Below are positions 12,517-46,391 of a stretch of DNA of 64,000 nucleotides, piece by piece. The stretch's first letter is position 1. Every line of letters starts with the position of its first letter. Below the pieces are notes generated by a model that was not told the origin of the DNA, did no database searches, and saw only the letters and a program-made list of their open reading frames with translations. This stretch comes from Microcoleus sp. Lineage in GTDB: Bacteria > Cyanobacteriota > Cyanobacteriia > Cyanobacteriales > Microcoleaceae. The position numbers were made by a program, and so were the translations under genes. The DNA lies in NCBI GenBank assembly GCA_042408215.1, contig JAYFMW010000006.1, positions 1,018,659 to 1,082,658 of the forward strand, written 5' to 3'.

Positions 12517-12815
12517 GTCAATCACCCACCGCTAATCGGAGTACCGATATAGCGGGGGCAAGAAATTCGCCTAGTTGACCAGTCTAAGTAAGAGAACACT
12601 TCGACACTTCGACTACGCGAGCGTGCGACGCTTCGCTCAGTGGAGCCACTTTTACTACGTTTAGGGCAAGAGTTAAAGACCTACCAGTGGATGCGAAGCT
12701 AGTCCACTGCTCTAGAACTCAGAAGTTAAACAGGCTTAAGGGTTAAACCAGTGCTTTTGAGATAGTTACCGACCTTAAACATTGACGAAGCTAACATTAC
12801 CCCGCAAGGGAGGAC
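12517..12815 (+). ncRNA. IscB omegaRNA (HEARO-like) scaffold
   Basis: Closely similar to the reverse complement of 46144-46391 (GTTGACCAGTCTAAG, ACTACGTT, CATTGACGAAGC, TTACCCCGCAAGGGAG). Confidence 0.8.
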
Positions 12816-12820
12816 TTAAA

Positions 12821-14093
12821 ATGTCTAATTTTGTTTTCGTACTTGATACCCAGAAACGACCACTCAATCCAATAGGACCAGGAATGGCTCGTAAGTTACT
12901 AACTACTGGCAAAGCGGCTGTTTTCAAAAGGTATCCATTTACCATAATCCTCAAAGTGGAAGTAATAGCAACTCCAGAACCAATCACCTTAAAAATAGAT
13001 CCTGGTTCTCAAACTACTGGCATCGCATTAGTGCAAGGTAATCAGGTGATCTGGGGTGCTGAACTAACCCATCGTGGTCAAGCCATCAAAGCAAGCCTTG
13101 AGTCCCGTCGCTCAATACGTCGGTCACGCAGAAATCGCCATACTCGCTACCGGAGAGCAAGATTTTTGAATCGCACCCGATCGAAAGGTTGGTTAGCCCC
13201 TAGTTTGCAACATCGAGTCGAAACAACTTTGACTTGGGTGAACAAATTAATTAGGTTTGCCCCCATCGGTTCAATTGTTCAAGAACTGGTCAGGTTTGAT
13301 TTACAACAATTAGAAAATCCTGAAATTTCAGGCATTGAATATCAGCAAGGAGAATTAGCTGGCTACGAAGTTCGGGAATATCTATTGAACAAATGGGACA
13401 GGAAATGCGCTTACTGTAGTGTTGAAAATGTACCTTTGCAAGTAGAACATATTCGTCCCAAAGCCAAAGGTGGCAGCGATCGCATTTCTAACCTTTGCCT
13501 TGCTTGTGAGAAGTGCAACCTCAAGAAAGGTACTCAGGATGTCGAGCAATTCTTAGCCAAGAAACCAGACGTTCTGAAGTGCATTCTTGCACAAGCTAAA
13601 CGTCCTCTCAAGGATGCAGCAGCCGTCAACTCTACCAGATGGGCATTGTTCAATCGCCTTAAAGAAACGGGATTGCCTGTTTCGACTGGTTCGGGTGGAT
13701 TAACTAAGTTCAACCGGACTCGATTGAAACTAGCTAAAACCCATTGGATTGATGCCGCTTGTGTTGGTCAAATTGAATCGTTATCTGTGCTGACAAACAA
13801 GCCGTTGTTAATTAAGACGACGGGATACGGTACTCGTCAAATGTGTCGCACGGATAAATTTGGTTTCCCATCTCGCTATGTGCCACGACTTAAGTTTGTC
13901 AAGGGGTTTCAGACTGGCGACATCGTGAGGGGCAACTGTTACCAGTGGCAAGAAAATTGGCACGTATGTCGGGCGTGTTGCCGTTAGGTCTAGCGGTTCG
14001 TTCAATATCTCCGCAGATACCTTGGTTCAGGGTATTAGTTCCAAATATTGCAAAACCATTCACAAAAAGGACGGATATAACTATGCCTTTTGA
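12821..14093 (+). pseudogene. iscB: IscB nuclease with +1 frameshift near the C-terminus
   Basis: RuvC-I IDPGS, Arg-rich bridge helix, RuvC-II QELVRFD, HNH (CAYC…EHIRP…SNLCLACEKCN), RuvC-III HWIDAA. Extra G in the G4 run 13929-13932; the homologous tail continues in another frame to TGA 14093. Confidence 0.85.
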
Positions 14094-14235
14094 GCTGGTT
14101 GGTGAATTACTCAACTGTCCCCATCCCTGTTTTTGCTAACGCAAAAATTCACTCAGGGGACGTTTCGCAATTCACCCCCATTCCTCCCAACACCGAGCTG
14201 AGTACAGCTATGGTGTGGGTCTCCTGGGGGCTGAG

Positions 14236-15408
14236 ATGAAGCTAGGACAATGGATAGGCTTATTAGCCCTCATCGCATCTTGTTACATCCTGTGGCAAAT
14301 CAGGCAAGCCCTATTGCTGTTATTTACAGCAGTCGTCTTAGCCACAGCCTTAAACAGGCTAGCACGGTACTTACAGAAATTCCGGCTCAAAAGATCGATC
14401 GCCGTACTCTTATCAATTAGCTTCCTAGTCCTGATTTTCGTAGGCTTATTCCTGATCATTGTACCACCCTTTACCCAACAGTTTCAACAACTTACCCAAA
14501 GAGCCCCTCAAGGAATAGAAAGATTAAATGAGTGGATAGATCAAATTGAAGCTCGCTTTTCAGGACAATTTGGTCAGCGGCTGCCAAATCTTGATGTTAA
14601 CGACATCATGCAACAACTGCAACCTTTATTCAACCAACTCGTCGGCGGTGCAGGAGCCTTTGTCGGCAACACATTAGGCGTTATCCTCAGCTTTTTGCTC
14701 GTCATAGTTTTGACCTTGATGACATTAGCAGAACCTCTCTCTTACCGCAAAGCATTTATACAACTATTTCCATCTTTTTATCGGCGACGAGTCGATGGCA
14801 TCTTAGATGAATGCGAAATAGCCCTCGGTCGATGGGTTATCGGCGCTTTAATTAGCATGAGTGTGATTGCTTTTTTGAGCTTAATTGGTCTGTCGGTATT
14901 GCAAGTTCCCCTACCGCTAGCTCACGCTGTAGTAGCAGGATTTCTTAACCTAATTCCCAATATAGGCCCCACTCTGAGCGTCATCCCGCCAATGACGATC
15001 GCACTTTTAGATTCTCCCTTACAATCAGGTTTTGTCCTAATCCTTTACTTTCTAATTCAACAGTTTGAAAGCAACGTCCTCACCCCCTACGTCATGGCAC
15101 AGCAAGTATCACTGCTGCCAGCAGTAACATTAATAGCTCAAGTATTCTTCGCCACCTTCTTTGGATTTTTAGGCTTATTGCTAGCCCTTCCCCTCACTGT
15201 TGTTGCTCAAGTTTGGATTAGAGAAGTCTTAATTAAAGACATTCTCAACCAGTGGGACACCAATCCCAGAAACCTAGCAGCAATTGATTCTGCTATTCAC
15301 GAGGAGTACGAAGCTATAGGAGTAACACATAGCAAGCCAGAAAGCAAGCCAGAACAAAAATCAGAAATCCCAAATAATACAGAAATTGATGATCCTGAAA
15401 ATTCATAA
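14236..15408 (+). CDS. AI-2E family transporter
   Basis: Multi-TM protein with NLIPNIGP, IQQFESNVLTP and GFLGLLLALPL motifs; ATG at 14236. Confidence 0.9.
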   Translation: MKLGQWIGLLALIASCYILWQIRQALLLLFTAVVLATALNRLARYLQKFRLKRSIAVLLSISFLVLIFVGLFLIIVPPFTQQFQQLTQRAPQGIERLNEWIDQIEARFSGQFGQRLPNLDVNDIMQQLQPLFNQLVGGAGAFVGNTLGVILSFLLVIVLTLMTLAEPLSYRKAFIQLFPSFYRRRVDGILDECEIALGRWVIGALISMSVIAFLSLIGLSVLQVPLPLAHAVVAGFLNLIPNIGPTLSVIPPMTIALLDSPLQSGFVLILYFLIQQFESNVLTPYVMAQQVSLLPAVTLIAQVFFATFFGFLGLLLALPLTVVAQVWIREVLIKDILNQWDTNPRNLAAIDSAIHEEYEAIGVTHSKPESKPEQKSEIPNNTEIDDPENS

Positions 15409-15413
15409 ATTAT

Positions 15414-16962
15414 AAGAAATACCCTGAAAACCCTGTGACTTTAGTCCAGGGATGAAAGGGCGTGGCAGGATTTATCCTGCCTGTTCGTAAGTTTCAATAT
15501 AACATAATGTTTAACCGTCCCCGGACAAATACTTCTAGCAATTGAGACCAAGGTAAAGATTTGTTGAGGATTAATTAACTTGTTAATTCACGATATATAC
15601 TAAACATAGTATCATAACAGCCAGTAAGTTAAATGTACGCAGTACAAAAAGATGTTTGGCATTTAAAAGGACTCGACAAAACCATTGTCGAACAACTACT
15701 AAGATGGTCAAATAATCTGTTTAATGTCGGAACTTACGAAAGTCGGCAACAATACTTTAAGAACCAAAGCGTAGTTAAATATCCAGATTTGTATAAAATC
15801 ACCAAAACCAACGAAAATTACGGGTTGCTATACTCTCAAGTCGCCCAGCAATCTCTTAAATCTGTCGCGGAATCTTTTACTTCTTTCCGAGCCTTAGAGA
15901 AGTTGGCAAATCAAGGAGAAATCCATCAAAAACCGAGACTACCAAGGTACAGAACAAAAGGGGGAATGTACCCCGTTTCATATCCCGGTCAAGCCTTAAA
16001 GGTGATTGGAAATAAAGTCAGATTACCCCTGGGGAAAAAAGGAAAAGAATACTTTGGGAAAGATGCGATTTGGGTTCCACTACCTGAACGTATCAAGAAT
16101 TGCCAGATCGAAGAACTCAGGTTAATCCCTAGAAATGGTGAGGTCTGGGTCGAATATGTCCACGAATCTCTGACTGAGCAAGCTCCTAGTTGCAGCCTGG
16201 AAGTAACAGGGGTTCTGGGAATAGATCATGGCATCAATAACTGGTTAACTTGTGTCTCTAGCAATGGTAAACCTTTCATCATTGATGGACATAGACTCAA
16301 GTCTTGGAACCAATGGTTTAACAAAGAAAAAGCGAGAGTTCAATCAGAACACGCAATACATAAATTACCCAAAGGTTTTTCGTCAAAAAGATTACAACAG
16401 TTGTCGGAAATTCGCACTAGAAGGATGAGAGATGCTGTCAACAAAGCAGTTAGAACCATCGTAGATTATTGCGAAAATCACCAAATTAACGTCTTAGTCT
16501 TTGGTTGGAATAAAGGACAGAAGCAAGAAGTCAATATGGGGGTAGTGACTAACCAAAGTTTTGTCCAAATACCCACTGCTAAAGTCAAAGATAGACTCCA
16601 ACAAGAATGTGACTTAAAGGGGTGGCGATTTGTCGAACAAGATGAATCTTACACATCAAAAGCAAGTTTTTTAGACCGAGACATTTTGCCAGTAAAAGTC
16701 GGTGAAAAACCTGACAATTGGCAACCATCGGGTAAAAGAATCAAAAGAGGATTGTACCGTTCTAGCGCTGGGTTGTTAATCAATGCAGACGTTAACGGTG
16801 CTGCTAATATCATTAGAAAATCAATCATTTGCCATAGACTCAATTATTGAGAGAGTGGGTAGAGGGTTGCTGACTAATCCTTTGAGAATTAAACTTTGGG
16901 CGGATTCATCCCCCAAAGTTTGTCCTTAAGAATCCCCGTGTCTTTAGACCGGGGAGTGTCAA
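15414..16962 (+). mobile_element. IS1341/IS605-type tnpB-only element
   Basis: Left-end hairpin CCCTG…TTTAG…CAGGG (left boundary approximate, after TTAT). Right end AATCCCCGTGTCTTTAGACCGGGGAGTGTCAA. Confidence 0.75.
15633..16850 (+). CDS. tnpB: TnpB RNA-guided endonuclease (rearranged RuvC-II type)
   Basis: GIDHG, FGWNKGQKQ, QDESYTSKAS and INADVNGAANI motifs. Confidence 0.9.
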   Translation: MYAVQKDVWHLKGLDKTIVEQLLRWSNNLFNVGTYESRQQYFKNQSVVKYPDLYKITKTNENYGLLYSQVAQQSLKSVAESFTSFRALEKLANQGEIHQKPRLPRYRTKGGMYPVSYPGQALKVIGNKVRLPLGKKGKEYFGKDAIWVPLPERIKNCQIEELRLIPRNGEVWVEYVHESLTEQAPSCSLEVTGVLGIDHGINNWLTCVSSNGKPFIIDGHRLKSWNQWFNKEKARVQSEHAIHKLPKGFSSKRLQQLSEIRTRRMRDAVNKAVRTIVDYCENHQINVLVFGWNKGQKQEVNMGVVTNQSFVQIPTAKVKDRLQQECDLKGWRFVEQDESYTSKASFLDRDILPVKVGEKPDNWQPSGKRIKRGLYRSSAGLLINADVNGAANIIRKSIICHRLNY

Positions 16963-17054
16963 TTCAAACAACGAGGTCGATCGCCACTCACAGCATTCCC
17001 TCCCTCGACAATCCATCAATCCAAAATCTAAAATCCAAAACCTAAAATTGTATT

Positions 17055-18230: not shown

Positions 18231-18248
18231 CAATTTTAGATGGGCGAT

Positions 18249-19493: not shown

Positions 19494-20062
19494 AAAAACT
19501 CCTTGCAGCGGAGACACATCCCTTAAGGGAGATTAGGAATAAACTGAAGAAACTGCTTTAAAAACTACTAGCACCAGACAGGCGGGCCGGTGGGCCCGCT
19601 GGTCTGGTTTTGACCCGTCAACGCCAACTTTCAATGCGTTAGGTGTGTCGATCGGTTCGCTGGCTGCTAAAATCCTTGTGAGCAAGGACTTTGAGAGTTG
19701 CTGAACCTTCGATCGCGCCCATTGAAAGTTGGAGTTGCTGGCTAATAGCATTTAGGATATTCAGCTTGCCTATTTTACTTAATCCAATTACCGAACGGGC
19801 TGATCCGCCATATTTTTGGTAATTTTGAGCAAGACCAAACTCAATTGGACAGACTACGCACTCCTTGGGGCTGCGAGTCTTGGTGTCCAAAATTGTTTAG
19901 CTAGCATGGAGTTGTGGGTCTGTTACCATATTAGCTGCAAGTAAAAGGTTGCTTTGTCACAGTTGGGGCCCTAAAGTTAAAAACCTGATGGACTTGGCAT
20001 AGGCAGCAGGTGATGCCTTCAATCTCAGAAAATAGTAAATTTTAAGCTGAAATAGTTGAATT

Positions 20063-20971: not shown

Positions 20972-21244
20972 AGAGTATTTTGAGTTGTAGGGGCGGTGAC
21001 CCCAGGCCCGCCCGCTTTATTTTGAGTTAAACAGTTTGAAATTCAGACACTCAATCATTACCCCCTTCCCGCTAGAAGATGATCTACTTCTTCCTGATTC
21101 TTCCTGATTCTGACTTCGTGTCCTTCGCGTCTTCGCGGTTGAATAATCATAATTATTCGGGCGCGAAAGGAGTAAAATTCGCGCACTCTATCAACCTAAA
21201 AACTCAAATCGGATTACCAATTCGACAAAATCTCGGAGGGAATT

Positions 21245-22943
21245 GTCAGTAACTCAGGTCTAAAGACGCGCTCGCTTGTAAGAGCAATCTTTCGCAAGCT
21301 GTACTGACCAGCTATCGTCTTAACTGACTACGTTTTTCGAGTCACGATGGTGCGTGCGTAGTCGAACCACACCTGTGGAATGCGAAGCTAGTTAAGAGCT
21401 CTGTCCGGAGCAATTAAACAGTTTTAAAGTCACGCTTTACAGTGTTGCAGGTCTAAAAAGCACGCCAAACAAAGGCGCGCGCTAACATCACAATAAATTG
21501 GAGAGACACAAAAATGTCTAACATTATTTTCGTACTTGATACCAACAAAAAACCACTTACACATTGTAAGCCATCAATGGCTCGTAAGTTGTTGACTGCG
21601 GGTAAAGCTGCGGTTTTTAAGCGCGATCCATTTACCATCATTTTAAAAAAGGCGGTGACAGAAACACCTGAATCCACTCTCAATCTAGACCCCGGTTCTC
21701 AAACAACTGGAATTGCTTTACTGCAAGGCGATCAAGTTGTTTTTGGTGCTGAATAAACCCATAGAGGGCAAAGCATCAAAGCAAGTCTTGAGTCCCGTCG
21801 CTGATTACGGAGGGGAAGACGAAGCCGCCATACTCGCTATCGCCAACCAAGGTTTTTAAACCGCACCCGATCGAAGGGTTGGTTAGCCCCTAGTTTACAA
21901 GATCGAGTCGAAACAACTTTGACTTTGGTGAACAAATTTATTAGGCTTGCACCGATCGGTTCAATTGTTCAAGAGCTTGTCAGGTTCGATCTACAACAAC
22001 TAGAAAACCCTGAAATTTCAGGTATTGAGTATCAGCAAGGAGAGTTCCCAGGCTACGAAGTTCGTGAATACCTACTCAATAAGTGGGAGCGAAAATGTGC
22101 TTACTGTGGCCTCGAAAATGTGCCTTTACAGATTGAACATATTCATCCCATATCCCTGGGGGGTAGTAATCGCATTTCCAATCTTTGTCTTGCTTGCAAA
22201 AAATGCAATCTCAAAAAGGGGACTCAGAATATTGAGCAATTTATTGCCCAGAAACCAGATATTCTGAAACGGGTTATGTCTCAAGCAAAACGTCCTCTCA
22301 AAGATGCAGCGGCCGTTAATTCAACTCGATGGGCTTTGTTTAACAAACTCAAAGAAACAGGGTTGCCTGTTTCAACTGGTTCCGGTGGATTAACTAAGTT
22401 TAATCGAACTCGATTAAAACTACATAAAACTCATTGGCTAGACGCTGCTTGTGTCGGGAAAATTGGAGAATTAGAAATTTTAACAAACCAGCCGTTGTTG
22501 ATTAAGGCGACGGGACACGGCACTCGTCAAATGTGTCGGACAGACAAGTTTGGCTTCCCATCTCGGTACGTTCTAAAAAACAAGTTTGTCAAAGGTTTTC
22601 AGACGGGTGACATTGTGAAAGCAGTCGTCACTAATGGAAAAAAAATAGGCAAATATGTGGGTCGGGAAGGCATTCAGGTCAACGGGTTCATTTAATATTT
22701 CAGCGTCATAATTTGTGCAAGGAATCAGTTACAAATACAGCCAAATTGTTCATCGTAAAGATGGTTATGGCTACGCATTTTAAAGATTCACTCGCTTATT
22801 GAAATCCCCCCTGGGATGCACGCTCGCCCTTCGACACTTCGACTACGCGAGCGTGCGACGCTTCGCTCAGGATCAACTCCGCCGAAGTGTCGTTTCCCTC
22901 TCTAGGGTCAAGCCGCTGAGTTTCCCACTTACCGAGTTTTTTT
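21245..22943 (+). mobile_element. Non-autonomous IscB element #2 with omegaRNA (approx 21245-21510)
   Basis: Starts GTCAGTAAC; has CTGACCAG, GACTACGTT and ATGCGAAGCTAG scaffold motifs; ends directly before ATGA at 22944. Confidence 0.75.
21514..22783 (+). pseudogene. iscB: IscB pseudogene
   Basis: Homologous to iscB #1. In-frame stops at about 21754 and 21802, and a frameshift near 22665. Confidence 0.85.
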
Positions 22944-23852
22944 ATGATTCAAAGCATTGATAGCATTGTTCTACCCCCTGCTTTTCCAGACCACACTCAA
23001 TTACCAGACTCCGACGGTACTTTTGTGAAAAATTTTCAGGAGCATCCGCAGAGTTTAATTCTAACTGATTCGATCGGACCAATTTTGCAGGAGCGGCATC
23101 CTGACGGACAATATGCGATCGGTCAAGACTGCGGCATTTACTGGCGAGAAACGGAACCGGCAGAACAAGGTGCCGAAGCTCCTGATTGGTTTTACGTTCC
23201 CAATGTACCTCCCAATTTAGACGGTCAAATTCGGCGTTACTACGTGCTGTGGCGGGAACACATAGCACCGTTAATTGCTTTGGAATTTGCGAGCGGGAAC
23301 GGGGATGAAGAGCGCGATTCCCTACCCTTCGGGAACCCCTACGGGGAACGGGATAGCTTCGCTTCACGTACTCCTTTATCTCGCACTGATGAAGGGGTAA
23401 TAACGAAACCAGGAAAGTTTTGGGTGTAGGAGCAGGTGATGCGAATTCCCTATTACGGCATCTACCAAGTTAATAATGGCAGATTAGAAGTTTATCGGTT
23501 GATTGACGGGTATTATCAACTGTTAGAACTCAATCAACGCGGTCATTTTGCGATCGCATCTTTAGGCATAGAATTGGGAATTTGGCAAGGCAATTATCAA
23601 AATCCAACCATGCTTTGGCTGCGCTGGTGGGACGAGGGAGGTAATTTGCTGTTGATTGGCGATGAAAGAGCAGAATTGGAGAGATTGCGAGGGGAACAAC
23701 AGTGGGAAAGGGGCGAGAGTGCAGAGCAGGCACGACAAGCTGAATTTCAGGCAAGAAGGGATGCAATTCCCCGATTGTTGGGAATGGGTTTGAGTGCCGA
23801 ACAAGTGGCGGAGGCGTTAGGTTTATCTGTGGAGGAAGTCAACCGATTTTAG
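22944..23852 (+). pseudogene. Uma2-family protein with one premature stop
   Basis: Two ORFs in the same frame separated by TAG 23427-23429 (KFWV*EQVMRIPYY); APDWFYVP and ALEFAS motifs. Confidence 0.8.
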
Positions 23853-23862
23853 ATTTTAGATT

Positions 23863-35628: not shown

Positions 35629-36079
35629 AGTTAGAATATTCCGGGGGGAAGGTGGTGAAGAAAGCTAAAGTGTATTCTGAATTATAGTTGAATTCACCAA
35701 AAAAGACTGGCAGTTCCGTTGGGCAAATCTAAAATCTCAAATCTAAAATCTAAAATTGGCTGGGGGAGAGCGTAAAAGTTGGTCGCTGTTTCCTATGCTG
35801 ATCAACAGGGGCTAGGGATCGATCGCACATGGCAAAGCAATTCAACAACCCCGCCCTTTGTCGAGACGGGGATACTCCCTTACCAATTCGGGCAACGTAA
35901 GCGTTGAATACCGCATGGGACACAGCTTGGTACAAACCTCCGAATACTTCCCTAGTTCGGAATCTCTTGAAACCTGATTGGTTCAGGTGTTGGGTAAAGC
36001 CAAGACATCTTAGCTGTGTTGTGGGAAGGGACTTAAACAAATATTGGGTTTAAAGCTGTAACGTAATTCTTGGACAAAG

Positions 36080-36250
36080 TTACCCATTGATGGAATTGTT
36101 GGGTAGCTCTCTAGCAAGTCTCTCGATCGCGTCACTAAGACTGCTTGCGGTAAGCTGAACTCGTTTTTCCTCTAGCCACTTAGTAGCAGTCTCGGTCAGG
36201 CTTAGGTTGACTTTACGCTTAGGCTCGCTGTAAATCTTTTTTCTAGGCAT
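36080..36250 (-). CDS. Small ribbon-helix-helix-like protein divergent from tnpB
   Basis: 56 aa: MPRKKIYSEPKRKVNLSLTETATKWLEE…SLSDAIERLAR. Confidence 0.6.
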   Translation of the reverse strand: MPRKKIYSEPKRKVNLSLTETATKWLEEKRVQLTASSLSDAIERLARELPNNSING

Positions 36251-36296
36251 TTTGTTGTTCCGCATTAATTCCGCATACAATAACAGTAAGGCAGAA

Positions 36297-37433
36297 ATGA
36301 GGCAAAAGCAAATGTTACTTAGTTTCAAGACGGAATTAAAACCTAACAACAAACAGGTGACAATATTTCGACAGCATTGCCCAGTAGCAAGACACGCTTA
36401 CAACTGGGCAAATTCAATCATCCTTGAAACATTAAAAATCAGGGAGACGGATAAAAGTGTAAAGCTCCCTTCTGCCATTGATCTACACAAACGTTTAGTA
36501 GCGGAAGTCAAGCCTCTGTATCCCTGGTATTATGAGTCTTCCAAAGCAAGCCCACAGCAGGCTCTAATTGAATTGAGGATAGCTTGGGATAGATGCTTCA
36601 AAAAGGTATCTAAACAACCTAGGTTCAAGAAAAAAGGTGTGTCAGGTGATTCTTTTTATCTAGAGCAAGGAACCAAAGCAAAGCCAGGAATTAATAACGA
36701 CGGCAAGCGCATCAAGTTACCTAAGATTGGTTGGGTTAGGTTGCACGAACCATTGCCCATTACGGCGTTCCACAACTGCGTAATCAGTCGAAAAGCTGAC
36801 AGATGGTTCATTGCTTTTAAGTGCGAAATTGAGCAGCCCGCAACTCTACCTAGCCGTCCTACCGTCGGAGTTGATATCGGCATCAAGCAGCTAGCTGTTT
36901 GTTCTAACGGCGAAGTCTTTGCCAACCCTAAAGCCGAGCGTCGGATGAACCGTAAAATGAAACATCTGCAACGACGTGTTAGCAAACGAGTCAAAGGTTC
37001 TAATAACCGCAAAAAAGCAGTCTCAAAGCTAGCCAAGCTGCACCTAAAAGTATCAAATATCCGAAAAGATGCTATTCATAAGCTAACAACTTACCTCGCC
37101 AAAAACCACAGTGAGGTGAAGATTGAAGATTTGAATGTTAAGGCATTTTTGAAGAACCACAAGTTAGCTGGTGCAATCGCCGACTGCGGAATTTACGAAT
37201 TCAAGCGTCAACTTGAATATAAAACCAAAAAGTTTAACTCAAAATTGACGCTCATAGATCGATTCTTTCCTAGCAGTCAAATCTGTTCAAATTGCTGCAA
37301 TCATCGGCATAAAATGCCATTAAGAGTCCGAGCCTTTGAATGTCCCAGTTGTGGAAATATTCAAGACCGTGACTTGAATGCGTCGAAAAATATAGAACGT
37401 TGGTTTGAAGGAATATTTATTCCAGAGTCCTGA
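36297..37433 (+). CDS. tnpB: TnpB RNA-guided endonuclease
   Basis: GVDIG, IEDLNV, zinc finger CSNC…CPSC, DRDLNASKNI. Confidence 0.9.
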   Translation: MRQKQMLLSFKTELKPNNKQVTIFRQHCPVARHAYNWANSIILETLKIRETDKSVKLPSAIDLHKRLVAEVKPLYPWYYESSKASPQQALIELRIAWDRCFKKVSKQPRFKKKGVSGDSFYLEQGTKAKPGINNDGKRIKLPKIGWVRLHEPLPITAFHNCVISRKADRWFIAFKCEIEQPATLPSRPTVGVDIGIKQLAVCSNGEVFANPKAERRMNRKMKHLQRRVSKRVKGSNNRKKAVSKLAKLHLKVSNIRKDAIHKLTTYLAKNHSEVKIEDLNVKAFLKNHKLAGAIADCGIYEFKRQLEYKTKKFNSKLTLIDRFFPSSQICSNCCNHRHKMPLRVRAFECPSCGNIQDRDLNASKNIERWFEGIFIPES

Positions 37434-37617
37434 GCTATGCGTTGGATCAGAATTGGCGGTGAGTTCCACCGTGTCAGCACGGGCGAGAGTAGACAAACCC
37501 GACAGCAGTCATGTTGTCGCTACTGTGAAACAGGAAGTTAACACCACAAGCACTTATGTCTAGTTATGTCTACATTTGGATAATTATGGGTAAGTTTTTC
37601 AGAACGGTTATACCAAG

Positions 37618-37847
37618 ATGCGAATTCCAGTAGTAGACAAAGACCATCACCCACTCATGCCCACAACACCTGCACGGGCGCGGAAATGGGTTGAATCTGG
37701 TAAAGCAGTTAAGCACTGGTCAGATTGCGGACACTTCTATGTCCAGTTGGTTGCAGAGCCGTCTGGACGAGCCACTCAGGATATTGCGATCGGGATTGAT
37801 CCCGGCAAGAAATATTCAGGTATTGGCGTTGTGTCGGCAAAGTTTAC
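37618..37847 (+). pseudogene. isrB: IsrB/IscB N-terminal fragment (PLMP + RuvC-I)
   Basis: MRIPVVDKDHHPLMPT…GIDPGKKYSG, cut at TTAC by the next element; the remainder is absent. Confidence 0.7.
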
Positions 37848-37860
37848 CAAAAAAATGGGT

Positions 37861-38007
37861 TTAAAGCCCCGTCCTTCTAGGACGGCTTTTCTTTAATTTG
37901 CTAATTAATTCTCTCAGTAGATCATTTTAAGTACGTATTGTCTGGGTGCAATACTCCATGAGTATCTCGTACTCCTCATCTTAGGATCTAATTGTTAATT
38001 TTTTCAT
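37861..38007 (-). pseudogene. Degraded small RHH/CopG-like gene
   Basis: Manual translation MKKLTIRS*DEEYEILMEYCTQTIRT*NDLLRELISKL… has two in-frame stops. Confidence 0.55.
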
Positions 38008-38045
38008 GCCGTCATATCGCCGTTGATTTGTGATATAATACTAGC

Positions 38046-39170
38046 ATGAAAACACTGAAGTTTAAGTTGTACGAACACAAGCGGAATAAACACCTCAAGC
38101 GGATGATTAACGCCGCAGCGGTGATTTATAACCATTGTATTGCTCTACATAAACGGTACTACCGAATGTGGGGCAAGCACTTGAGTTGTGCAAAAATTCA
38201 GTCTCATATTGCCAAGTTGAGAAAACGTAATCCATTTTGGCAATCGGTCGGTTCTCAGGCAGTACAGGACATCTGTCAACGCATTGAGAAAGCCTATAAA
38301 CTGTTCTTTAAGCACCAGAATAAAAAAGTTAGACCGCCCAACTTTAAGAAAGTTAGACGATACAAATCGTTCACTTTAAAACAAGCTGGCTACAAATTAT
38401 TAGGTGGCAACCGGATCGAGATTGGAAATCGTGTCTATCAGTATTGGAACACTAGAGCCATTGAGGGAACGGTCAAGACCTTGACTATTAAGCGCACGAC
38501 CTTAGGAGAGTTGTTTATGGTCATCGTTGTAGACAGCGTTAATGAACCTAAAACCAAATTCGAGACGAGTAGAATCGCTGGATTTGATTTTGGTTTGAAA
38601 ACGTTTCTCACCTGTTCAGATGGTTCCAAGATTAAATCACCGCAATTTCTGAAACAATCGCTCAATGCCATCAAGAAGGCGAGTCGCAATCATTCCAAGA
38701 AACGGAAAGGTTCCTCCAATCGTGAACGAGCTAGAAAAAACTTAGTTCGTAAACATGAAGATATTTGTAACCGCAGACGTGATTGGTTCTGGAAATTAGC
38801 TCAACAATTGACAGACAAGTTTGATGTTTTATTTTTTGAAACCCTAAATCTTAAGGGAATGCAACGTCTTTGGGGTAGAAAAATATCAGACTTGGCTTTT
38901 GGTGAATTTCTGCAAATCCTCGAATGGGTAGCAACGAAGAAAGGGAAGCAGGTTGTTTTCATCGACAGATGGTATCCATCCTCTAAGACTTGTTCGCACT
39001 GTGGGCAAGTCTTAAAAGAATTAGCGATAGATGTGCGTGAATGGCGTTGTCCGTCCTGTCAGTCAGTGAACGGCAGAGACGAAAACGCTGCTATAAATAT
39101 TCAAATGGTTGGGGCATCAACCATTGGGTTAGGTGATGTTAGACGGGCTACGCCCGCAGTTACTGTTTGA
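38046..39170 (+). CDS. tnpB: TnpB RNA-guided endonuclease
   Basis: GFDFG, FETLNL, CSHC…CPSC, GRDENAAINI. Confidence 0.9.
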   Translation: MKTLKFKLYEHKRNKHLKRMINAAAVIYNHCIALHKRYYRMWGKHLSCAKIQSHIAKLRKRNPFWQSVGSQAVQDICQRIEKAYKLFFKHQNKKVRPPNFKKVRRYKSFTLKQAGYKLLGGNRIEIGNRVYQYWNTRAIEGTVKTLTIKRTTLGELFMVIVVDSVNEPKTKFETSRIAGFDFGLKTFLTCSDGSKIKSPQFLKQSLNAIKKASRNHSKKRKGSSNRERARKNLVRKHEDICNRRRDWFWKLAQQLTDKFDVLFFETLNLKGMQRLWGRKISDLAFGEFLQILEWVATKKGKQVVFIDRWYPSSKTCSHCGQVLKELAIDVREWRCPSCQSVNGRDENAAINIQMVGASTIGLGDVRRATPAVTV

Positions 39171-39276
39171 CCCCAGAATCCCCACTCTTCTAGGGCGGGG
39201 AGTATGTCAATTGCTAACTTTCAGTAAAGCCGTCCTCCGCTTCGCTAGAGGACGGGGTTTCAAACCCAAATTTCTG

Positions 39277-40194
39277 ATGAATGAGACTAAGGCGATCAAA
39301 ATTGCGGTGGTGGGGGATGTTCACGATCAGTGGGAAGCGGAAGACGGCGAGGCGCTGCTGCGTCTAGGCGTTGATTTGGTGCTGTTTGTGGGGGATTTTG
39401 GGAATGAGTCGGTGGAGGTGGTGCGGGCGATCGCCCAATTGGACATTCCGAAAGCAGCGGTATTTGGGAACCACGACGCTTGGTACACGGCGACGGATTG
39501 GGGCAGAAGTCAATGCCCCTACGATCGCACTCAAGAGAATCGGGTGAAACAGCAGTTAGATTTAATGGGGGAAGCTCACGTCGGTTACGGGAAGCGGGAT
39601 TTTCCAGAATTGGGAGTAACTGTGGTAGGAAGTCGCCCGTTTACTTGGGGGGGATCGGAGTGGAAGTACGCGGATTTTTACTCGGAGTGGTTTGGGGTGG
39701 AGAGTTTTGAGGAGTCGGCCAGACGCATTGCACTTTCGGCTGCGGACGCGGACTGCGAAAATGTGATTTTTTTGGGTCACACAGGCCCGACGGGCTTGGG
39801 AGAGGCTCCTGAAGACCCCTGCGGGCGAGATTGGAAGCCACTGGGAGGGGATTGGGGCGACCCAGATTTTGCGGTGGCGATCGACAAAACTCGTAATTCT
39901 GGCAAGCAGGTACCTCTGGTAACTTTTGGTCATATGCACCACAAACTGCGGCACATAAAGAAGGAGTTGCGGAAGTCGCTAAGTGTGAGTGCGGAGGGTA
40001 CGGTTTATTTGAATGCGGCCAGCGTACCGCGAATTGTGGACAGAGACTGCTCGAAACTGCGAAATTTCTCGATCGTGCTGCTGGAAGCTGGAGTAGTGTC
40101 GGAAGTGTCTCTGGTTTGGGTTGGGGGGGATTTTGCTGTGGAAAGAGAACAAATTCTGTATCGGCGTGCTGAATCTGCAACTGCTTGTGGTTAG
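39277..40194 (+). CDS. Metallophosphoesterase (TIGR04168-like)
   Basis: GDVH, GDFG, GNHD and FGHMH motifs. The original first four codons lie at 35829-35840. Confidence 0.85.
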   Translation: MNETKAIKIAVVGDVHDQWEAEDGEALLRLGVDLVLFVGDFGNESVEVVRAIAQLDIPKAAVFGNHDAWYTATDWGRSQCPYDRTQENRVKQQLDLMGEAHVGYGKRDFPELGVTVVGSRPFTWGGSEWKYADFYSEWFGVESFEESARRIALSAADADCENVIFLGHTGPTGLGEAPEDPCGRDWKPLGGDWGDPDFAVAIDKTRNSGKQVPLVTFGHMHHKLRHIKKELRKSLSVSAEGTVYLNAASVPRIVDRDCSKLRNFSIVLLEAGVVSEVSLVWVGGDFAVEREQILYRRAESATACG

Positions 40195-40228
40195 AGACAA
40201 CTACTGGTATGATAGATTTCATGCACCG

Positions 40229-40315
40229 GGAGAGGTGGCAGAGTGGTCGAATGCGCTCGGCTTGAAACCGAGTGTGGCAGTGATGTCACCGTGGGTTCAA
40301 ATCCCACCCTCTCCG
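40229..40315 (+). tRNA. tRNA-Ser(TGA)
   Basis: GGAGAGG/CCTCTCC acceptor stem, CTCGG-CTTGAAA-CCGAG anticodon arm, long variable arm, GGTTCAAATCC T-arm, G73. Confidence 0.95.
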
Positions 40316-40423
40316 TTTTTAGGAAACTGCCTGATTTTTGGGCGATCGCAACTTGGTCAGACACACCTGATTTCAATTGACAGCCGTAAAGGTCAGGAGT
40401 TGATCGCTCAAACTCCCCTCCAC

Positions 40424-41836
40424 TCAAATAACTCCAATTGCTGGAACTATCTTAGGGTTCCCAGGCTCACCCACCAACGCGGATGATTTTCCCTGTCTTC
40501 CAACAGGCTCCTCGGGCGTAGTTTTATCCTGTTTCCGAGGGACTCTCGGTACAGCATCCAAATAGATTCCCAGTCGATTCAGGCCACGCTGCAAAATAAC
40601 TTTTGCAGCATCCACATCGGCATCCTCATGATGGCCGCACTCTTCGCAGATAAATTTCTCTTGATCTCGATTTGTGGGACTGATATACCCGCACTCGCTG
40701 CATTCCTGAGAGCTAAAGTGAGGCATCGCTTCATAAACCAGAACGCCCGCCCTGTCGGACAAAATCTTGACTTTCTGTTTTAAGGAACCCCAAGCAGCAT
40801 CAGTAATGGCTTTGTTCAGTCCAGATTTAGCAGACTGACCGTTAGGCAGATACTTTCCGTTTTCATCCTGCTTTGGTTTGCAGCGTGCCATCATGCCTTG
40901 AATATTCAGATTCTCGAACACAATCAGATCGAATTGCTTCACCAAGTTATTAGCTATCTTCCATTGGTAATCCTCTCGTCGATTGGCAACTTTTTGTTCC
41001 AGTCTGGCTAAGCGCTGACAGGCTTTTCTGCGACGGCGGGAACCTAAAACCTTGCGGCTGACAGCACGGTTTAGTTGCGATCGCTTCCGCTCCATCTGTT
41101 GATAAAATCTGGGATTGGCAATGGTTTGTCCCGTACTGAGAGACATTAGCTTCTTGATACCCAGATCTACTCCTACTGCTGTTTTAACTTGATTTGCTGC
41201 TGGAATATCTGGAACAGACTCATCTTGCAACAAAACAGAAATATAAAAGCCATCTGCTTTTTTCCGAACAGTGACGGAACGAATGCTGAAAGCATTGGGA
41301 AACAGTCGGGACTGAAAAAACGACATCCAGCCAATACCGGGAAGTCGAACTTTATTCCCTTTAAAGGCGACATCTCCAGGCGGGTAGGTGAAAGAGCGAA
41401 ATTTACCCTGCCGCTTTGTTTTCGGATATTTGCCCAATCCTCGGAAAAAGCGCCCAAAAGCAGCATCAACCTGTTTCAGCATTTGTTGCAAAACATGGTG
41501 ATAGATTTCTCTATACCAAGGACGCTCCTGCTTCAGGTCAACCAGATTGGCATCTTGTTGAGCCAGCGGAGTCCTTTTCTTGCCTTTTGCTGTCCAAGGA
41601 TAGCCGTACAAAGCACCTTTGCTTAACGAGCAAGCGAAAGGGCAACACTCGGCTTGAGTTTCGATGAAGCAGTAGTTCCCCATAACAGGAAATCTTGCTT
41701 GCTCGTAGGCTTCTGTCCGCTCTCTGACTCTGAAATTGTACTGCAAGCGGAGCAAATGAATCCACCGCTCGATTGTTTGAGCTTGTTTGGGCGATGGATT
41801 CAGCTTGTAAACATAAGCAAGCAGCATGACTCTCAA
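40424..41836 (-). CDS. tnpB: TnpB-family nuclease, 9 bp downstream of the KilA-N gene
   Basis: GVDLG, FENLNI, CSEC…CEEC, DADVDAAKVI. Confidence 0.88.
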   Translation of the reverse strand: MRVMLLAYVYKLNPSPKQAQTIERWIHLLRLQYNFRVRERTEAYEQARFPVMGNYCFIETQAECCPFACSLSKGALYGYPWTAKGKKRTPLAQQDANLVDLKQERPWYREIYHHVLQQMLKQVDAAFGRFFRGLGKYPKTKRQGKFRSFTYPPGDVAFKGNKVRLPGIGWMSFFQSRLFPNAFSIRSVTVRKKADGFYISVLLQDESVPDIPAANQVKTAVGVDLGIKKLMSLSTGQTIANPRFYQQMERKRSQLNRAVSRKVLGSRRRRKACQRLARLEQKVANRREDYQWKIANNLVKQFDLIVFENLNIQGMMARCKPKQDENGKYLPNGQSAKSGLNKAITDAAWGSLKQKVKILSDRAGVLVYEAMPHFSSQECSECGYISPTNRDQEKFICEECGHHEDADVDAAKVILQRGLNRLGIYLDAVPRVPRKQDKTTPEEPVGRQGKSSALVGEPGNPKIVPAIGVI

Positions 41837-41845
41837 TTAACTAGG

Positions 41846-42727
41846 CTACTGATTCAGCAGATTAGCAACTTGCTGCGCTGTGGAATGGGAGATGCTAGCG
41901 CATGAGCTCACCCCATTAGGATTAAGCGTGTTGATCCGCTTGGCACTGAGAACTTTGGCAAAATCTGTAGCAGCCAGTTCCTCCATTGTCATGGCATCTT
42001 TGCAGTTTTGTCCTTTTTTCAATCCTCTTGCTGTTCGGAAATCTTCGGTACGGCCAATGATCGGCTGATACACCCTCGCCTTGCACTGAGCAAAGTGCAG
42101 TGGAACCTGAACCCCATGTTCATACAAAGCTGCCTCGTAGAAGTCTTCTTTGGGAATAGAGTCAAGACGGGCTCCAATATATTCACGGCTTTTGCCTTGC
42201 TTTTCCCAATTTTTAACTGCCCTTTGCCGACTACGGCGAACGCCGAGTTCTGGATCTACTTCTTCTTCAATCCTTTCTTTGACAGCATTTCGCGCCCAAT
42301 CACGAAACTCTGTAGACAAGGATTCGGCATATTCGATGGCTATCTTGTCTATGGCATAAGTTCCACCGCCTATACCTCCGCGAGTTGATATCAGACCAAC
42401 ATCTTTAGCTAATTTTCTGACTTGGTTTGCCCAAGCTCTGTATTTTTTACATGCAGAGTTAGCGACTGGTTGTTCTACAAAAGTTCTCTCGACAACGGGT
42501 TTTAACTCAAGCTTAGCTTCAAGGACTAATTCCAACAGCCGTTCACAGATACGCTTCTGTATCAACCACTTATCTAGCTCTTGGGATTTAACAGACCCGG
42601 CAGCTTTCCACATATCGGTCAGGCAGATTAGCCCACCGTTTTGCTGACAATGAATCACTAAACCTTTGTAATTCATGTTCTTACTCCGTAATTTCCCCAT
42701 CGCCAAAAAACCTCCACTAAAATCCAA
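41846..42727 (-). CDS. KilA-N domain protein (antirepressor-like)
   Basis: ICLTDMWKAAG and GGGTYAIDKIAIEYAESLS motifs; start uncertain (42727, 42700 or 42676). Confidence 0.75.
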   Translation of the reverse strand: MDFSGGFLAMGKLRSKNMNYKGLVIHCQQNGGLICLTDMWKAAGSVKSQELDKWLIQKRICERLLELVLEAKLELKPVVERTFVEQPVANSACKKYRAWANQVRKLAKDVGLISTRGGIGGGTYAIDKIAIEYAESLSTEFRDWARNAVKERIEEEVDPELGVRRSRQRAVKNWEKQGKSREYIGARLDSIPKEDFYEAALYEHGVQVPLHFAQCKARVYQPIIGRTEDFRTARGLKKGQNCKDAMTMEELAATDFAKVLSAKRINTLNPNGVSSCASISHSTAQQVANLLNQ

Positions 42728-42880
42728 AACAGTCTTGACATATTTGTGACCGTGTGGTAGTAGCTAAGGGTTGACAAATGTGCTATGATAAAAGCACAAG
42801 AAACTCTAGACCGCAAGAAATTAAATTCTTGCAGCTCAGGTGTATAGCCCAAAGCGACTACCGAGCAAGATCCTTATCTG

Positions 42881-42967
42881 TGGGGATGGTGGGACTCGAA
42901 CCCACAAAAACCCTGGCAGGTTATCCGGTTAGGAGCCGGATGCGTTTTCCAGTTCCGCCACATCCCC
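42881..42967 (-). tRNA. Atypical class II tRNA with CCT (Arg) anticodon
   Basis: GGGGATG/CATCCCC acceptor stem; D arm GCG-GAACTGGAAAA-CGC; TCCGG-CTCCTAA-CCGGA anticodon arm; 18-nt variable region; GTGGG-TTCGAGT-CCCAC T-arm; A73. Confidence 0.85.
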
Positions 42968-43085
42968 AAGTAGAATGCAGCGGCGATACTTTGAATTAGG
43001 AACTCAAAGCATCGTCGCTGTTTGTTAACGGAGAAAATATCATTTGCGGTGTCATCATCGTGTTGCTCGCATTATTTGACTCTGA

Positions 43086-43682
43086 TTATTCGTTGCACAA
43101 ATTTGAAGCATAAAGATTTCGACCAAGCTTTTTCCACCTTTTATGTGTCTCTGCGCCCCGACGCAATTCTACGCTCAAGGAGTTTTTGGCTCGCCAAAAT
43201 TCCTCTTCAGATTCCGCGTCAAATATAGCTTCGACAATCCGATCGGCTAGCATTGGCTCTTGATGAGCATTCAAAACCTTTTCTATGGATTCTGCAAAGG
43301 TCAGCCCCAGGTACTGAGGACGCTTTATCTCCACAGGGTTACGCTGATGTCTGTTTTGAGAGATTGCTTTTTCAAGACCTGCATCTTCAAAAGCAAAACT
43401 AACATTGGCTAGGCCTCCTTTTAGATGTTCCTCTGCACCAAGAGAACTTGTCGAAGCTACTTGACTCTCATTCAAAGTCAGTGTTTCTGTTTCGGAAACC
43501 ACATCTGTAGGTTTTGATGCCACTTCATCAGGAGCTACCTGCGCCAGCGTACTCTCGTAATAAAGAATACTTTCTTTTAGTTGTACAGCTTTCGCTTGTA
43601 CTTCAGCAAGTTCTGACTTCTGCTGGTCAATTTGCTCTGTGAGCCATTTGACGAGCTGTTCGCGGGCAAGATCCTGTGCCAT
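43086..43682 (-). CDS. Coiled-coil + putative winged-helix protein
   Basis: N-terminal heptad pattern; C-terminal AESIEKVL…MLADRIVEAIF…SLSVELRRG…WKKLGRNLY. Confidence 0.65.
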   Translation of the reverse strand: MAQDLAREQLVKWLTEQIDQQKSELAEVQAKAVQLKESILYYESTLAQVAPDEVASKPTDVVSETETLTLNESQVASTSSLGAEEHLKGGLANVSFAFEDAGLEKAISQNRHQRNPVEIKRPQYLGLTFAESIEKVLNAHQEPMLADRIVEAIFDAESEEEFWRAKNSLSVELRRGAETHKRWKKLGRNLYASNLCNE

Positions 43683-43869
43683 AGCTCCTAAAATTTTCTG
43701 TGCTTCTCAGAAGATCACACAACAAAACAAATTTAGGAACAAAAAAAAGAAAAGAATGTAAAAAATTCTCGGTTCTTAAATCACATTACATACCGCTGCG
43801 AGTTCCCACCAAAAAAAACACCCCGCAGAGGTGCTTTTGCCTACCAAATAATCTGTCAGGTCAACTGAC

Positions 43870-44193
43870 TTAACTAAACCCTTCCTCATCCGCTGGGTCT
43901 CCGTATGGGTCTTCACTGGCTGGGAGGACATCTCCAAACTGCCCAGCATCCGCTACGTAGTGTGCCGGGTCTCCATAGGGGTCTTCGCTGGCCGGGCGGA
44001 CGTTAGCGAACTGTCCAGAATCCGCGTAGTCGGCCGGGTCGCCCAGGGGGTCTTCGCTGGCCGGGCGGACCTTGCCGAACTGTCCAGAATCTGGGGGACG
44101 ATCGTAGTTGTCTTCATCCTCAGAAGATCTTGAATTTTCGTTTTCCGGCCCGACGATCGCATCTTTCAATTTTCGCAAAAAACTGTCTACCAT
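43870..44193 (-). CDS. Small acidic repeat protein
   Basis: Three GQF.xV.PASEDP[LY]GDPA repeats. Confidence 0.75.
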   Translation of the reverse strand: MVDSFLRKLKDAIVGPENENSRSSEDEDNYDRPPDSGQFGKVRPASEDPLGDPADYADSGQFANVRPASEDPYGDPAHYVADAGQFGDVLPASEDPYGDPADEEGFS

Positions 44194-44301
44194 GATTAAT
44201 TTCCTCTGGTTTATTAGCTAAAAAAACGGCTGTTTGAGATGGGAAATGCCAGATGTAATAGAAAATCTTAAATCATCCATCTAAAAGCTGAAATAGTTTG
44301 G

Positions 44302-44802
44302 TTACAGTGCCGGAACAGGAGTTGTAGCTTCCGGCAAGCTAGTGAGGTCTTTACCTGTAGTTTGGTTGTTGTACCCCTGGAATTCGCGGTAACGCGATGC
44401 TTCCGACTCCGGCACTTTAATGCCTTCTGGTGGCGGCGTTACCCAGTGAGCTCGTTTCTGGGCGTCGCGGTAGTAAACGCGGCCGTTTTTGGAAAGGTAA
44501 TATTGCCCCTGCGGCCCCTGTTCTTGTTTATTTTTGTGCTGATTGTAGAGGTAGTAAAGGGCGGCTGCTCCTACTAAAGTAATCGCTACTTTTTGAGTAT
44601 TGCTCAGTCCTTGTTTCGCTTGGGGCGAAGGACTGGAGGTACGATTTGCGGGCGCTCCAGCGCGAGTATCATCTACTGGGGGCGGGGGAGCAGAATTTTG
44701 CTGGCTGGAACCGCAAGCAGTGACAAAGGGAAATGTGAGCAGCGTTGTCAGCAGCAGTGCCATGAAGCGCGAGCTTCTTGGTTCCGGGTAAACTTGATTC
44801 AT
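44302..44802 (-). CDS. Putative lipoprotein
   Basis: Lipobox FVTAC, internal hydrophobic helix, YYLSKNGRVYYRD. Confidence 0.75.
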   Translation of the reverse strand: MNQVYPEPRSSRFMALLLTTLLTFPFVTACGSSQQNSAPPPPVDDTRAGAPANRTSSPSPQAKQGLSNTQKVAITLVGAAALYYLYNQHKNKQEQGPQGQYYLSKNGRVYYRDAQKRAHWVTPPPEGIKVPESEASRYREFQGYNNQTTGKDLTSLPEATTPVPAL

Positions 44803-46391
44803 CTGTCTTCCCCCTTGGAGACTCCCACTGTACCTGTACCCTGGTCAGTGGCGAGAGGAAAAGGGAGGCAAGGTTTATGCTGCATACGAATAACCATCCT
44901 TTCGGTGAACAACTGAACAATATTTGTGACTAATTCCCGATACCAATTCGGATGCGGAAATATTAAATGAACCACTCGTTCTTACGGCAACAGATCCAAC
45001 GTATTTACCAATTTTCTTGCCGGAGGTTACAATCGCTTTAACGATATCTCCCGTTTGAAAACCTTTGACAAACTTAAACCTAGGGACATAGCAAGATGGA
45101 AATCCAAACTTATCGGTACGACACATTTGACCTGTCCCATGCCCAGTCGCTTTAATTAACAATGGCTTGTTTGTTAATATTTCCAACGAATCAACGTTCC
45201 CAACACAAGCTGCATCTAACCAGTGAGTTTTAGCTAAATTCAATCGAGTGCGGTTGAACTTTGTTAGGCCACCACTGCCAGTAGAAACTGGTAAGCCAGT
45301 CATAGGGAGTCGGTTAAATAATGCCCAACGAGTCGAATTAACGGCTGTCGCGTCTTTGAGAGGACGATGAGCTTGAGATAGAATCCGCTTCAAAATCTCT
45401 GGCTTTTTAGAGAGGAATTGCTCAATACCTTGAGTTCCTTTCTTTTTATTACATCTTTCGCAAGCAAGGCAAAGATTAGAAATGCGATTAGAACCACCCT
45501 TAGCTTTAGGATGAATATGTTCGACTTGTAATGGTGTATTTGTAACACCACAATACGCGCACTTTCTATCCCACTTATTGAGCAAGTATTCCCGAACCTC
45601 GTAGCCACATAAAACACCTTGCTGATATTCGATTCCAGAAATCTCTGGATTTTCTAATTGTTGTAAGTCAAACCGTACAAGTTCTTGAATAATCGAGGCA
45701 ATAGGGGCGAGCTTCATCAATCTAGTTACCCAGGTTAGGGTTGTTTCGACACGATGTTGCAAGCTGGGAGCCAGCCACCCTTTAGGGCGAGTCCTATTTA
45801 GGAACCTCGCTTGACGATAGCGAGTATGACGATTTCTCCTACCTCTACGCAATGAACGGCGAGACTCCAAACTGGCTTTGATTGTTTGACCGGGCGTGAG
45901 TTAGTTCTGCACCAAAGATTACGTCCTCTCCTTGCACTAATGCGATTCCTGTAGTCTTAGAACCCGGATCTATTTTAAGAGTGATTGGTTTTTGGGTTGC
46001 TGTCACCTCTACTTTGAGAATTAGTGTGAATGGATACCTTTTGAAAACAGCAGCTTTGCCATTGTTTAGCAATTTACGAGCCAATCCCGGATTGGATTGA
46101 GCGGTTGTTTTCTGGTATCAAGTACAAAAACAAAATTAGACATTTCAGCCCTCCCTTGCGGGGTAATGTTTGCTTCGTCAATGTTTAAGGTCGGTAACTA
46201 TATTAAAAGCACTGGCTTAACCCTTACACCTGTTTAACTTTTAATTTCTAGAGCAGAAAACTAGCACGCATTTTCTGGTAGGTACTTTAACGCTTACCTT
46301 AAACGTAGTGGGCGAACCACTTAGACTGGTCAACTTGGCGAATTTCTTGCCTGCACCGTATCGGTAATCCGATCGGTGCCGGGTTGTTGAC
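44803..46391 (-). mobile_element. Non-autonomous IscB element #3 with omegaRNA (46144-46391)
   Basis: Minus strand starts GTCAACAACCC; scaffold is homologous to element #1; ends directly before ATGA of the lipoprotein gene. Confidence 0.8.
44875..46143 (-). pseudogene. iscB: IscB with two N-terminal frameshifts
   Basis: Frameshifts near 46090 and 45893; HNH and RuvC motifs otherwise intact. Confidence 0.85.

Follow-up and report, generated by a model that had tools for sequence, protein, structure and literature searches.

The IscB and IsrB transposons of a Microcoleus genome lie directly on the start codons of host genes far more often than the frequency of their target sequence would predict. 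We analyzed a window of 64,000 nucleotides (nt) from Microcoleus sp. (assembly GCA_042408215.1, contig JAYFMW010000006.1, positions 1,018,659 to 1,082,658 of the forward strand). It contains four ISC-type elements of the IS200/IS605 superfamily, namely three IscB elements with a HEARO RNA and a degraded iscB gene (elements 1 to 3) and one IsrB-type remnant (element 4). Each element stops immediately before a host ATGA, at positions 14236, 22944 and 39277 on the plus strand and 44802 on the minus strand, and each ATG opens a co-oriented host open reading frame (ORF). In the whole genome, 37 of the 58 elements with resolved ends (64%) are followed directly by a coding-like ORF, at its first in-frame ATG. 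The landing on start codons is real and strongly non-random. The four elements and the host ORFs that follow them are:

12517-14235, plus strand: element 1, an ISC-type IscB transposon with a type-C end; a recent insertion, with a 90.7%-identical paralog aligning over positions 1-1720 (the whole length)
14236-15408, plus strand: host AI-2E transporter ORF, beginning at the ATGA; PF01594 at residues 6-330, profile positions 2-325
21245-22943, plus strand: element 2, an IscB transposon with a type-B end and a degraded iscB; the end is set by 22 paralog alignments
22944-23429, plus strand: host Uma2-family ORF of 161 amino acids (aa), beginning at the ATGA; PF05685, E 3.8e-7
35841-39276, plus strand: element 4, an IsrB-type remnant with a type-D left end (end hairpin and tail) and two nested TnpB elements
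39277-40194, plus strand: host metallophosphoesterase ORF, beginning at the ATGA; PF00149 at residues 7-222, profile positions 1-190
44803-46391, minus strand: element 3, an IscB transposon with a type-A end, at which nine paralog alignments stop
44302-44802, minus strand: host ORF of 166 aa, beginning at the ATGA; codon score 21.0 over 166 codons, no Pfam match

Empty alleles were searched for by comparing the opening segments of the host ORFs (486-600 bases) with congeners and reading the sequence upstream. The site of element 1 was empty in all nine congener loci, one of them in a 98%-identical genome with exactly the reconstructed junction. The sites of elements 2 and 3 were each empty in 11 of 11 loci. 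In the empty alleles of element 2, the ATG is directly preceded by GGAGGGAATT, and GGAGG lies 7 nt ahead of this ATG. For element 4, eight of the 11 congener loci were empty, one (in the closest relative) was occupied as in the window, one had another element and one was uninformative. As the empty alleles have the same junctions, the ATGA belongs to the host and there was no target duplication. This insertion polymorphism among congeners indicates recent mobility and, because the insertions differ even among close relatives, they must be young. Upstream of the phosphoesterase orthologue in another species (locus L045, genome G004), another short element, distinct from element 4 and with a type-D tail, occupies an ATGA lying 4 nt upstream of the element 4 site. 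It is an independent second hit on the same start region. The upstream "Met1" ATG of the phosphoesterase is missing in two of the empty alleles, which have no in-frame upstream ATG. Thus, the ATG at the insertion point is the conserved start.

The initial annotation had proposed that all four elements end at an ATGA that starts a host ORF, and the element ends and the ORFs confirmed this, although two of the junction positions it implied were off by one base; the positions given above are the corrected ones. The empty-site junctions that it had reconstructed were matched in the congeners, and the GGAGG ribosome-binding site that it had expected at the empty site of element 2 was seen there. 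Its junction for element 4 was right as well, whereas the ATG at this junction, which it had read as an in-frame Met5, is better regarded as the start itself.

HEARO RNAs, reportedly described by Weinberg in 2009, are said to be integrated next to ATGA or GTGA. In the genome of the window (G000; 7.36 Mb in 30 contigs) we obtained 70 HEARO matches, and 64 of these exceed the gathering score. Element ends were defined where the alignments among copies stop. By this definition, ATGA follows the end of 58 of the 70 copies. The remaining 12, from divergent lineages that lack an ATGA-type end, were excluded (E13, 39, 49, 51, 54, 58, 59, 63, 64, 65, 66 and 69). A copy was regarded as start-like if, after its flanks were joined, the ATG at the junction opened an ORF without an earlier in-frame ATG, and this ORF had 50 or more codons and a codon-usage score of 8 or higher. 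In addition to the 37 start-like elements, two were found at Met5 and Met16 of long ORFs. Pfam matches were present in 36 of the 42 downstream ORFs of at least 50 codons, many of them from profile positions 1-3. The downstream genes include those for an EF-G-family protein, ChlB, ribosomal protein L19, signal peptidase I, arginine decarboxylase, DAHP synthase, a class A penicillin-binding protein-type transglycosylase/transpeptidase, CemA, Psb27 and an ammonium transporter. Most of the copies are small: 40 of the 57 classed ones are 335-600 nt long and consist of the HEARO scaffold and the tail, without iscB. Intact-length iscB ORFs (412-459 aa) occur at about 17 loci of the genome.

Both strands of G000 together have 50,012 ATGA sites, of which 33,709 (67%) are in genes, 13,993 are intergenic and 2,310 are the first ATG of a gene. 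Start codons thus make up 4.6% of all ATGA sites and 14.2% of the non-disruptive ones. When the null was conditioned on the observed 5- or 6-mer, 17-18% of the sites were start codons, so we rejected an extended target motif as the cause of the excess. The observed 64% is higher than all of these expectations (p = 5e-35 for all sites, 6e-18 for non-disruptive sites and 3e-14 with 5-/6-mer conditioning). In a wider set of 66 ATGA-type ends, 41 of the 2,310 start sites were occupied versus 25 of the 13,993 intergenic sites, a difference of about 10-fold per site. The genome-wide count therefore bears out the view of the initial annotation that start codons are favoured, with 37 of 58 elements on starts against the 4.6% background.

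Two side observations concern the counted sites and ends. Tandem heptamer arrays, (TAGTCAT)n, were seen at, for example, segments E00, E34 and E60. They have one TCAT/ATGA per unit and raise the intergenic ATGA count, with C at +5 = 38%. E00 (C28:196605) and E56 (C30:230698) have composite ends, in which a type-E end lies about 100 nt beyond a type-D-like one that is mutated to ATGG in one case. The stretch between the two ends is homologous in E00 and E56, so the outer end is the real one.

Elements with other targets or tails do not show the pattern. Among the sister left-end families of G000, which are TnpB elements with the same hairpin and other targets, none of the 62 ends (classes ATAA 30, GTAA 18, GTGA 8 and ATCG 6) is on the first ATG of a gene. 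For the 43 of these ends that have a co-oriented downstream gene (six families), the median distance to that gene is 295 nt and only two are within 50 nt. A general pull of the insertion sequence family to gene starts was rejected on the basis of this distance. We also surveyed genome G123, from another family of the same order. It has 65 HEARO matches, 44 of which end before ATGA, two of them sharing one site. In the test used for G000, 20 of these 44 are start-like, a replication of the pattern. Of the 21 matches without an ATGA tail, 13 belong to a second lineage with a tail ending in ATGGC or AAGGC, and an ORF of 100 or more codons lies behind only one of these 13 copies. Given these controls, the effect goes with the ATGA target and is not a trait of IscB elements or of this insertion sequence family at large. 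The loci of the second G123 lineage are L130, L133-L138, L141 and L144-L148, and their scaffold begins with GGGATCATTCTAAAA. TnpB elements in general are numerous in G000, with 212 loci, of which 174 include an N-terminus. They fall into at least four families, and TTAT, TTAC or TCAT precedes their left ends.

The elements also have a strong orientation bias toward the gene downstream. This gene is co-oriented in 54 of the 57 elements, and in 17 of the 20 that are off start codons, while the background at intergenic ATGA sites is 45.8%. A gene on the opposite strand lies downstream of only three of the 57 elements but of 54% of the intergenic ATGA sites. By comparison, the upstream gene is co-oriented in just 34 of 57. 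If only starts and sense sites at most 50 nt upstream of a gene are counted as transcribed (2,310 and 792 sites), 74% of the elements would be expected on starts, near the observed value. A replication-strand cause of the orientation bias was considered and rejected by reasoning alone, as its expected sign does not fit; the 30-contig assembly was without an origin.

How the ATGA target is set can be approached through the left ends. On the active strand, the tetranucleotide that adjoins the left-end hairpin on its 5′ side tracks the target: GAAA goes with TCAT in 19 copies, AAAA with TTAT in 26, AAAG with TTAC in 16 and GAAG with TCAC in two. Guide positions 1 and 4 covary with target positions 2 and 4, a natural covariation over four targets in one genome. 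The tetranucleotide target thus appears to be set by a 4-nt guide beside the left-end hairpin. In IS608, the left-end guide AAAG reportedly selects TTAC, as Barabas in 2008 and Guynet in 2009 are said to have found. The AAAG beside the hairpin of the TTAC family here (16 copies) resembles that case; the difference is that we have covariation and no experiment. The genome has about 13 intact Y1 TnpA genes (13 Y1_Tnp matches, E at most 7e-24), and none is beside a HEARO. The elements are non-autonomous, with TnpA probably acting in trans to insert them next to TCAT of the active strand without target duplication. This TCAT reads as an ATGA immediately 3′ of the element in the orientation of iscB. 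As ATGA contains ATG, a substantial part of the usable targets are start codons with an A behind them, and insertion there leaves the ORF whole.

The family, its N|ATGA target and the external guide are already published. In its main text, the paper of Kapitonov, Makarova and Koonin (2016; PMC4810608) gives N|ATGA as the target of ISC elements in Microcystis, Halomonas and Marinobacter (ISC1-1_MA of Microcystis, ISC2-1_HM and ISC2-1_MS), which agrees with the statement of the initial annotation that ATGA is a reported target. Our elements share with those the non-autonomous IscB/IsrB organization, the 5′-GT terminus, insertion 5′ of ATGA without target duplication, a 3′ terminus in common with IS605B (TnpB) elements, in which tnpB is antisense, and ends verified by empty sites. 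The terms "start codon" and "initiation codon" do not occur in that main text. We add the start fraction of 64% and the background for it, the many derivatives that lack iscB (40 of 57) and the table of left-end guides and targets. The main text of Meers et al. (2023; 10.1101/2023.03.14.532601) reports that the IscB guide lies outside the element, in line with the upstream-flank guide assumed in the initial annotation, that it needs outside transcription and that there is an orientation bias relative to the upstream gene. GstIscB/ISGst, as described there, likewise has its omega-RNA scaffold at the right end of the transposon, an external guide and a need for outside transcription. Its iscB tends to point in the same direction as the upstream gene, and only the orientation of the upstream gene was scored in that text. 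The signals in our data are stronger on the other side, in the abutment to the downstream ATG (37/58) and the co-orientation with the downstream gene (54/57), with upstream co-orientation in only 34/57. Literature searches covering main texts found no start-codon rule stated for this family.

The explanation that we favour combines the ATGA targeting of ISC elements with a retention of those start-codon copies that are transcribed by the host promoter. Taken as a whole, we would give it an even chance of being correct. Start-codon copies would be preferentially kept. The omega-RNA guide, being the upstream flank, would be made only by a host promoter that reads the element in sense, and a copy sitting where a 5′ leader ends would be transcribed together with its guide. 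After excision, IscB-directed cutting of the empty site, with ATGA as the presumed TAM, could re-install such a copy. The copy would also pass the transcript on to an intact host ORF with an open initiation region. An IscB-independent component, either a site preference of TnpA or host tolerance, probably adds to this. There may thus be two layers, one independent of the cargo (insertion preference or host tolerance) and one specific to IscB that fits the retention of transcribed copies. A more far-reaching version, to which we hold only tentatively, is that this ATGA-targeting ISC lineage has adapted to start codons: its GAAA guide would aim at the reverse complement of ATG plus A, it would land in sense where a host 5′ leader ends, the host promoter would be borrowed for the production of guide, omega-RNA and nuclease, the left-end tail would become the new leader of an undamaged host gene, and the roughly 10-fold excess per site would reflect selection for this configuration.

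In the contigs of four metatranscriptome runs of relatives, from which we drew no conclusion on expression, the multi-copy scaffold and the tails have a high summed depth. A joint without iscB (12803>22912) was present in the contigs of all four runs. At the E38 and E05 loci, contigs span from the upstream flank into the HEARO and from the tail into the downstream gene, although carry-over of DNA is possible.

Three other explanations were weighed against the retention of transcribed copies. The initial annotation had reasoned that surviving insertions favour start codons because the ORF stays intact. In its pure form, this means that TnpA inserts at any ATGA, the gene-breaking copies are purged and the starts remain. 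Part of this holds, since only one of the 66 ATGA-type ends is in a gene call, whereas 67% of the ATGA sites are in gene interiors. Non-disruption explains these near-empty interiors, not the tenfold preference for starts over other harmless sites: it predicts 14.2% of the elements on starts, or 17-18% with 5-/6-mer conditioning, against the observed 64% (p = 6e-18 to 3e-14). Moreover, the regions that should be most neutral, those with an opposite-strand gene downstream, are the ones that hold only 3/57 elements. The ages of the copies speak on both sides. Among those with a best-paralog identity below 90%, 26 of 35 are on starts, compared with 10 of 20 at 90% or above (Fisher p = 0.08), as survivorship would have it; however, the youngest class is then already at 50%. 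The start bias exists from early on and may increase with age. Survivorship is already contradicted as the sole cause of the excess, and we consider it highly improbable as the full account.

The early presence of the bias suits an integration preference instead, in which TnpA or a single-stranded state of the target favours translation starts for any cargo. The independent second insertion 4 nt from the element 4 site in another species fits as well, and so do the TnpB elements with a TCAT target. In G000 and its congeners, 7 of 18 of these (39%) are start-like where 14-18% would be expected, although this is an upper bound, as upstream in-frame ATGs were not checkable there, and it is still below the 64% of the IscB elements. 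Three loci (L158, L167 and L172) were excluded from this control because they have no long antisense ORF; none of them is start-like, and the fraction would be 7/21 with them included. On the other hand, the extended motif does not account for such a preference, and the sister families with the same hairpin and other targets are not near gene starts (2/43 within 50 nt). We regard integration preference by itself as rather unlikely.

It is also conceivable that the end of the element supplies a leader or promoter that benefits the host gene or sustains its expression. By insertion, the native leader and any Shine-Dalgarno (SD) sequence are displaced by 0.35-3.4 kb, as the initial annotation had inferred; the rewired expression that it also proposed would be a putative effect. 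Genes that need to be expressed (those for L19, the EF-G-family protein, ChlB and signal peptidase I) carry the element in place of the leader, and with such housekeeping genes among the targets, host expression presumably continues. Tails of types A and E have GGGGGA or GAGG 5-9 nt before the ATG, and the predicted unpaired probability of the initiation region (-20 to +12) is unchanged (0.49 in occupied versus 0.51 in empty alleles). Yet SD-like motifs are present in only 18 of 58 tails, which is no enrichment over the 26% found upstream of genes genome-wide, and at the same sites they occur in 12 of 37 native flanks versus 9 of 37 tails. We therefore rejected the tail as an SD donor. The insertions are also polymorphic among close relatives, as would be expected of selfish and recent events. 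A useful rewiring of the host gene seems very unlikely to explain the excess.

Several observations weigh against the retention of host-transcribed copies. The TCAT-target TnpB elements do not need outside transcription and are enriched on starts too (p = 0.009-0.03 versus the nulls), with a fraction that is not significantly different from that of the HEARO copies (7/18 versus 37/58, Fisher p = 0.10). Part of the excess is therefore not specific to IscB. The orientation bias is not unique to IscB either, because the sister TnpB families have a co-oriented gene on the left-end side in 41 of 62 cases versus the 45.8% background. Among the elements off start codons, only two are within 50 nt of the next gene and the rest are 93-683 nt away, so there is no crowding in the last 50 nt of the leader. 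Since none of the three iscB genes in the window is intact, homing, if any, would have to draw on intact copies elsewhere. The start test in G123 was scored with a codon table taken from G000. The gene calls came from a home-made codon-score caller (5,589 genes covering 78% of the genome). Finally, contigs of RNA libraries cannot show a transcript, its start or its strand, and may derive from carried-over DNA.

The other parts of the elements in the window include:

12517-12800, plus strand: HEARO omega-RNA of element 1; RF02033, 122.7 bits (gathering score 83)
12782-13987, plus strand: iscB of element 1; RRXRR 1-174 and HNH, C-terminal part frameshifted
36252-37433, plus strand: nested TnpB gene of element 4; OrfB_IS605, TNB and HTH
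37618-37890, plus strand: N-terminal remnant (77 aa) of an IsrB-type nuclease in element 4; RRXRR positions 1-71, E 6e-19
38046-39170, plus strand: second nested TnpB gene of element 4; OrfB_IS605 and TNB

Compared with the HEARO model RF02033, elements 1 and 3 (46163-46391, minus strand, 132 bits) score above the gathering score and element 2 (21245-21491, plus strand, 67.2 bits) scores under it, while the HEARO-like match of element 4 (35841-36038, plus strand, 25.9 bits) is weak and not significant (E 0.24). The match of element 1 is 284 nt long, compared with the usual length of about 220 nt. The extra length comes from a CTTCGAC/GCGAGCG-rich repeat of about 45 nt that lies within this scaffold at 12595-12640. 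The same repeat occurs at 22829-22870 in the tail region of element 2 and at more than 10 further loci of the genome with 88-100% identity. In elements 1 to 3, the HEARO is followed by the nuclease ORF, in line with ISC transposons, whose omega-RNA lies directly upstream of this ORF and overlaps its start. The iscB ORFs of these elements all have RRXRR and HNH, and every one is damaged. In element 1, the conserved C-terminus is in another frame (13986-14093). The nuclease ORF of element 2 (21919-22695) retains just RRXRR positions 135-174 and HNH, and iscB of element 3 is split by a frameshift, its ORF at 44875-45870 retaining just RRXRR positions 90-174 and HNH. In congeners, intact relatives of the element 4 remnant (339 and 391 aa) contain RRXRR but gave no HNH match, in keeping with the IsrB-type label of the initial annotation. 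In predicted DNA folds, a left-end hairpin lies 19-23 nt from the end in elements 1, 3 and 4 (z = -2.4, -1.4 and -2.3); element 2 gives no clear hairpin (z = -0.8). The N-terminus of the 166-aa host ORF behind element 3 reads like a lipoprotein signal.

Further TnpB copies are found in the window at 15633-16850 and 40424-41836 (minus strand). The latter gene, together with a KilA-N-domain ORF (41846-42727, minus strand), is flanked by two 87-nt tRNA genes (40229-40315, plus strand; 42881-42967, minus strand). This stretch may be the remnant of an integrated element.

For annotation, these results suggest two simple rules. Where an ORF seems to begin within such an element, its true start is most likely the ATGA, and the guide is the 16-20 nt that precede the element. 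The pattern also implies that transposon-derived leaders serve many housekeeping genes, here those for L19, the EF-G-family protein, ChlB, signal peptidase I and DAHP synthase. As close relatives differ in the genes that are occupied, strain pairs are ready-made expression tests, for example elements 1 and 3 compared with their empty alleles in the 98%-identical congener. Should the excess on start codons be due to the retention of transcribed copies, it would be genomic evidence for how IscB guides are expressed in nature, and it would support the idea that homing shapes where the elements persist. If the lineage has indeed adapted to start codons, transposons would supply the leaders from which hundreds of host genes in the genus are translated.

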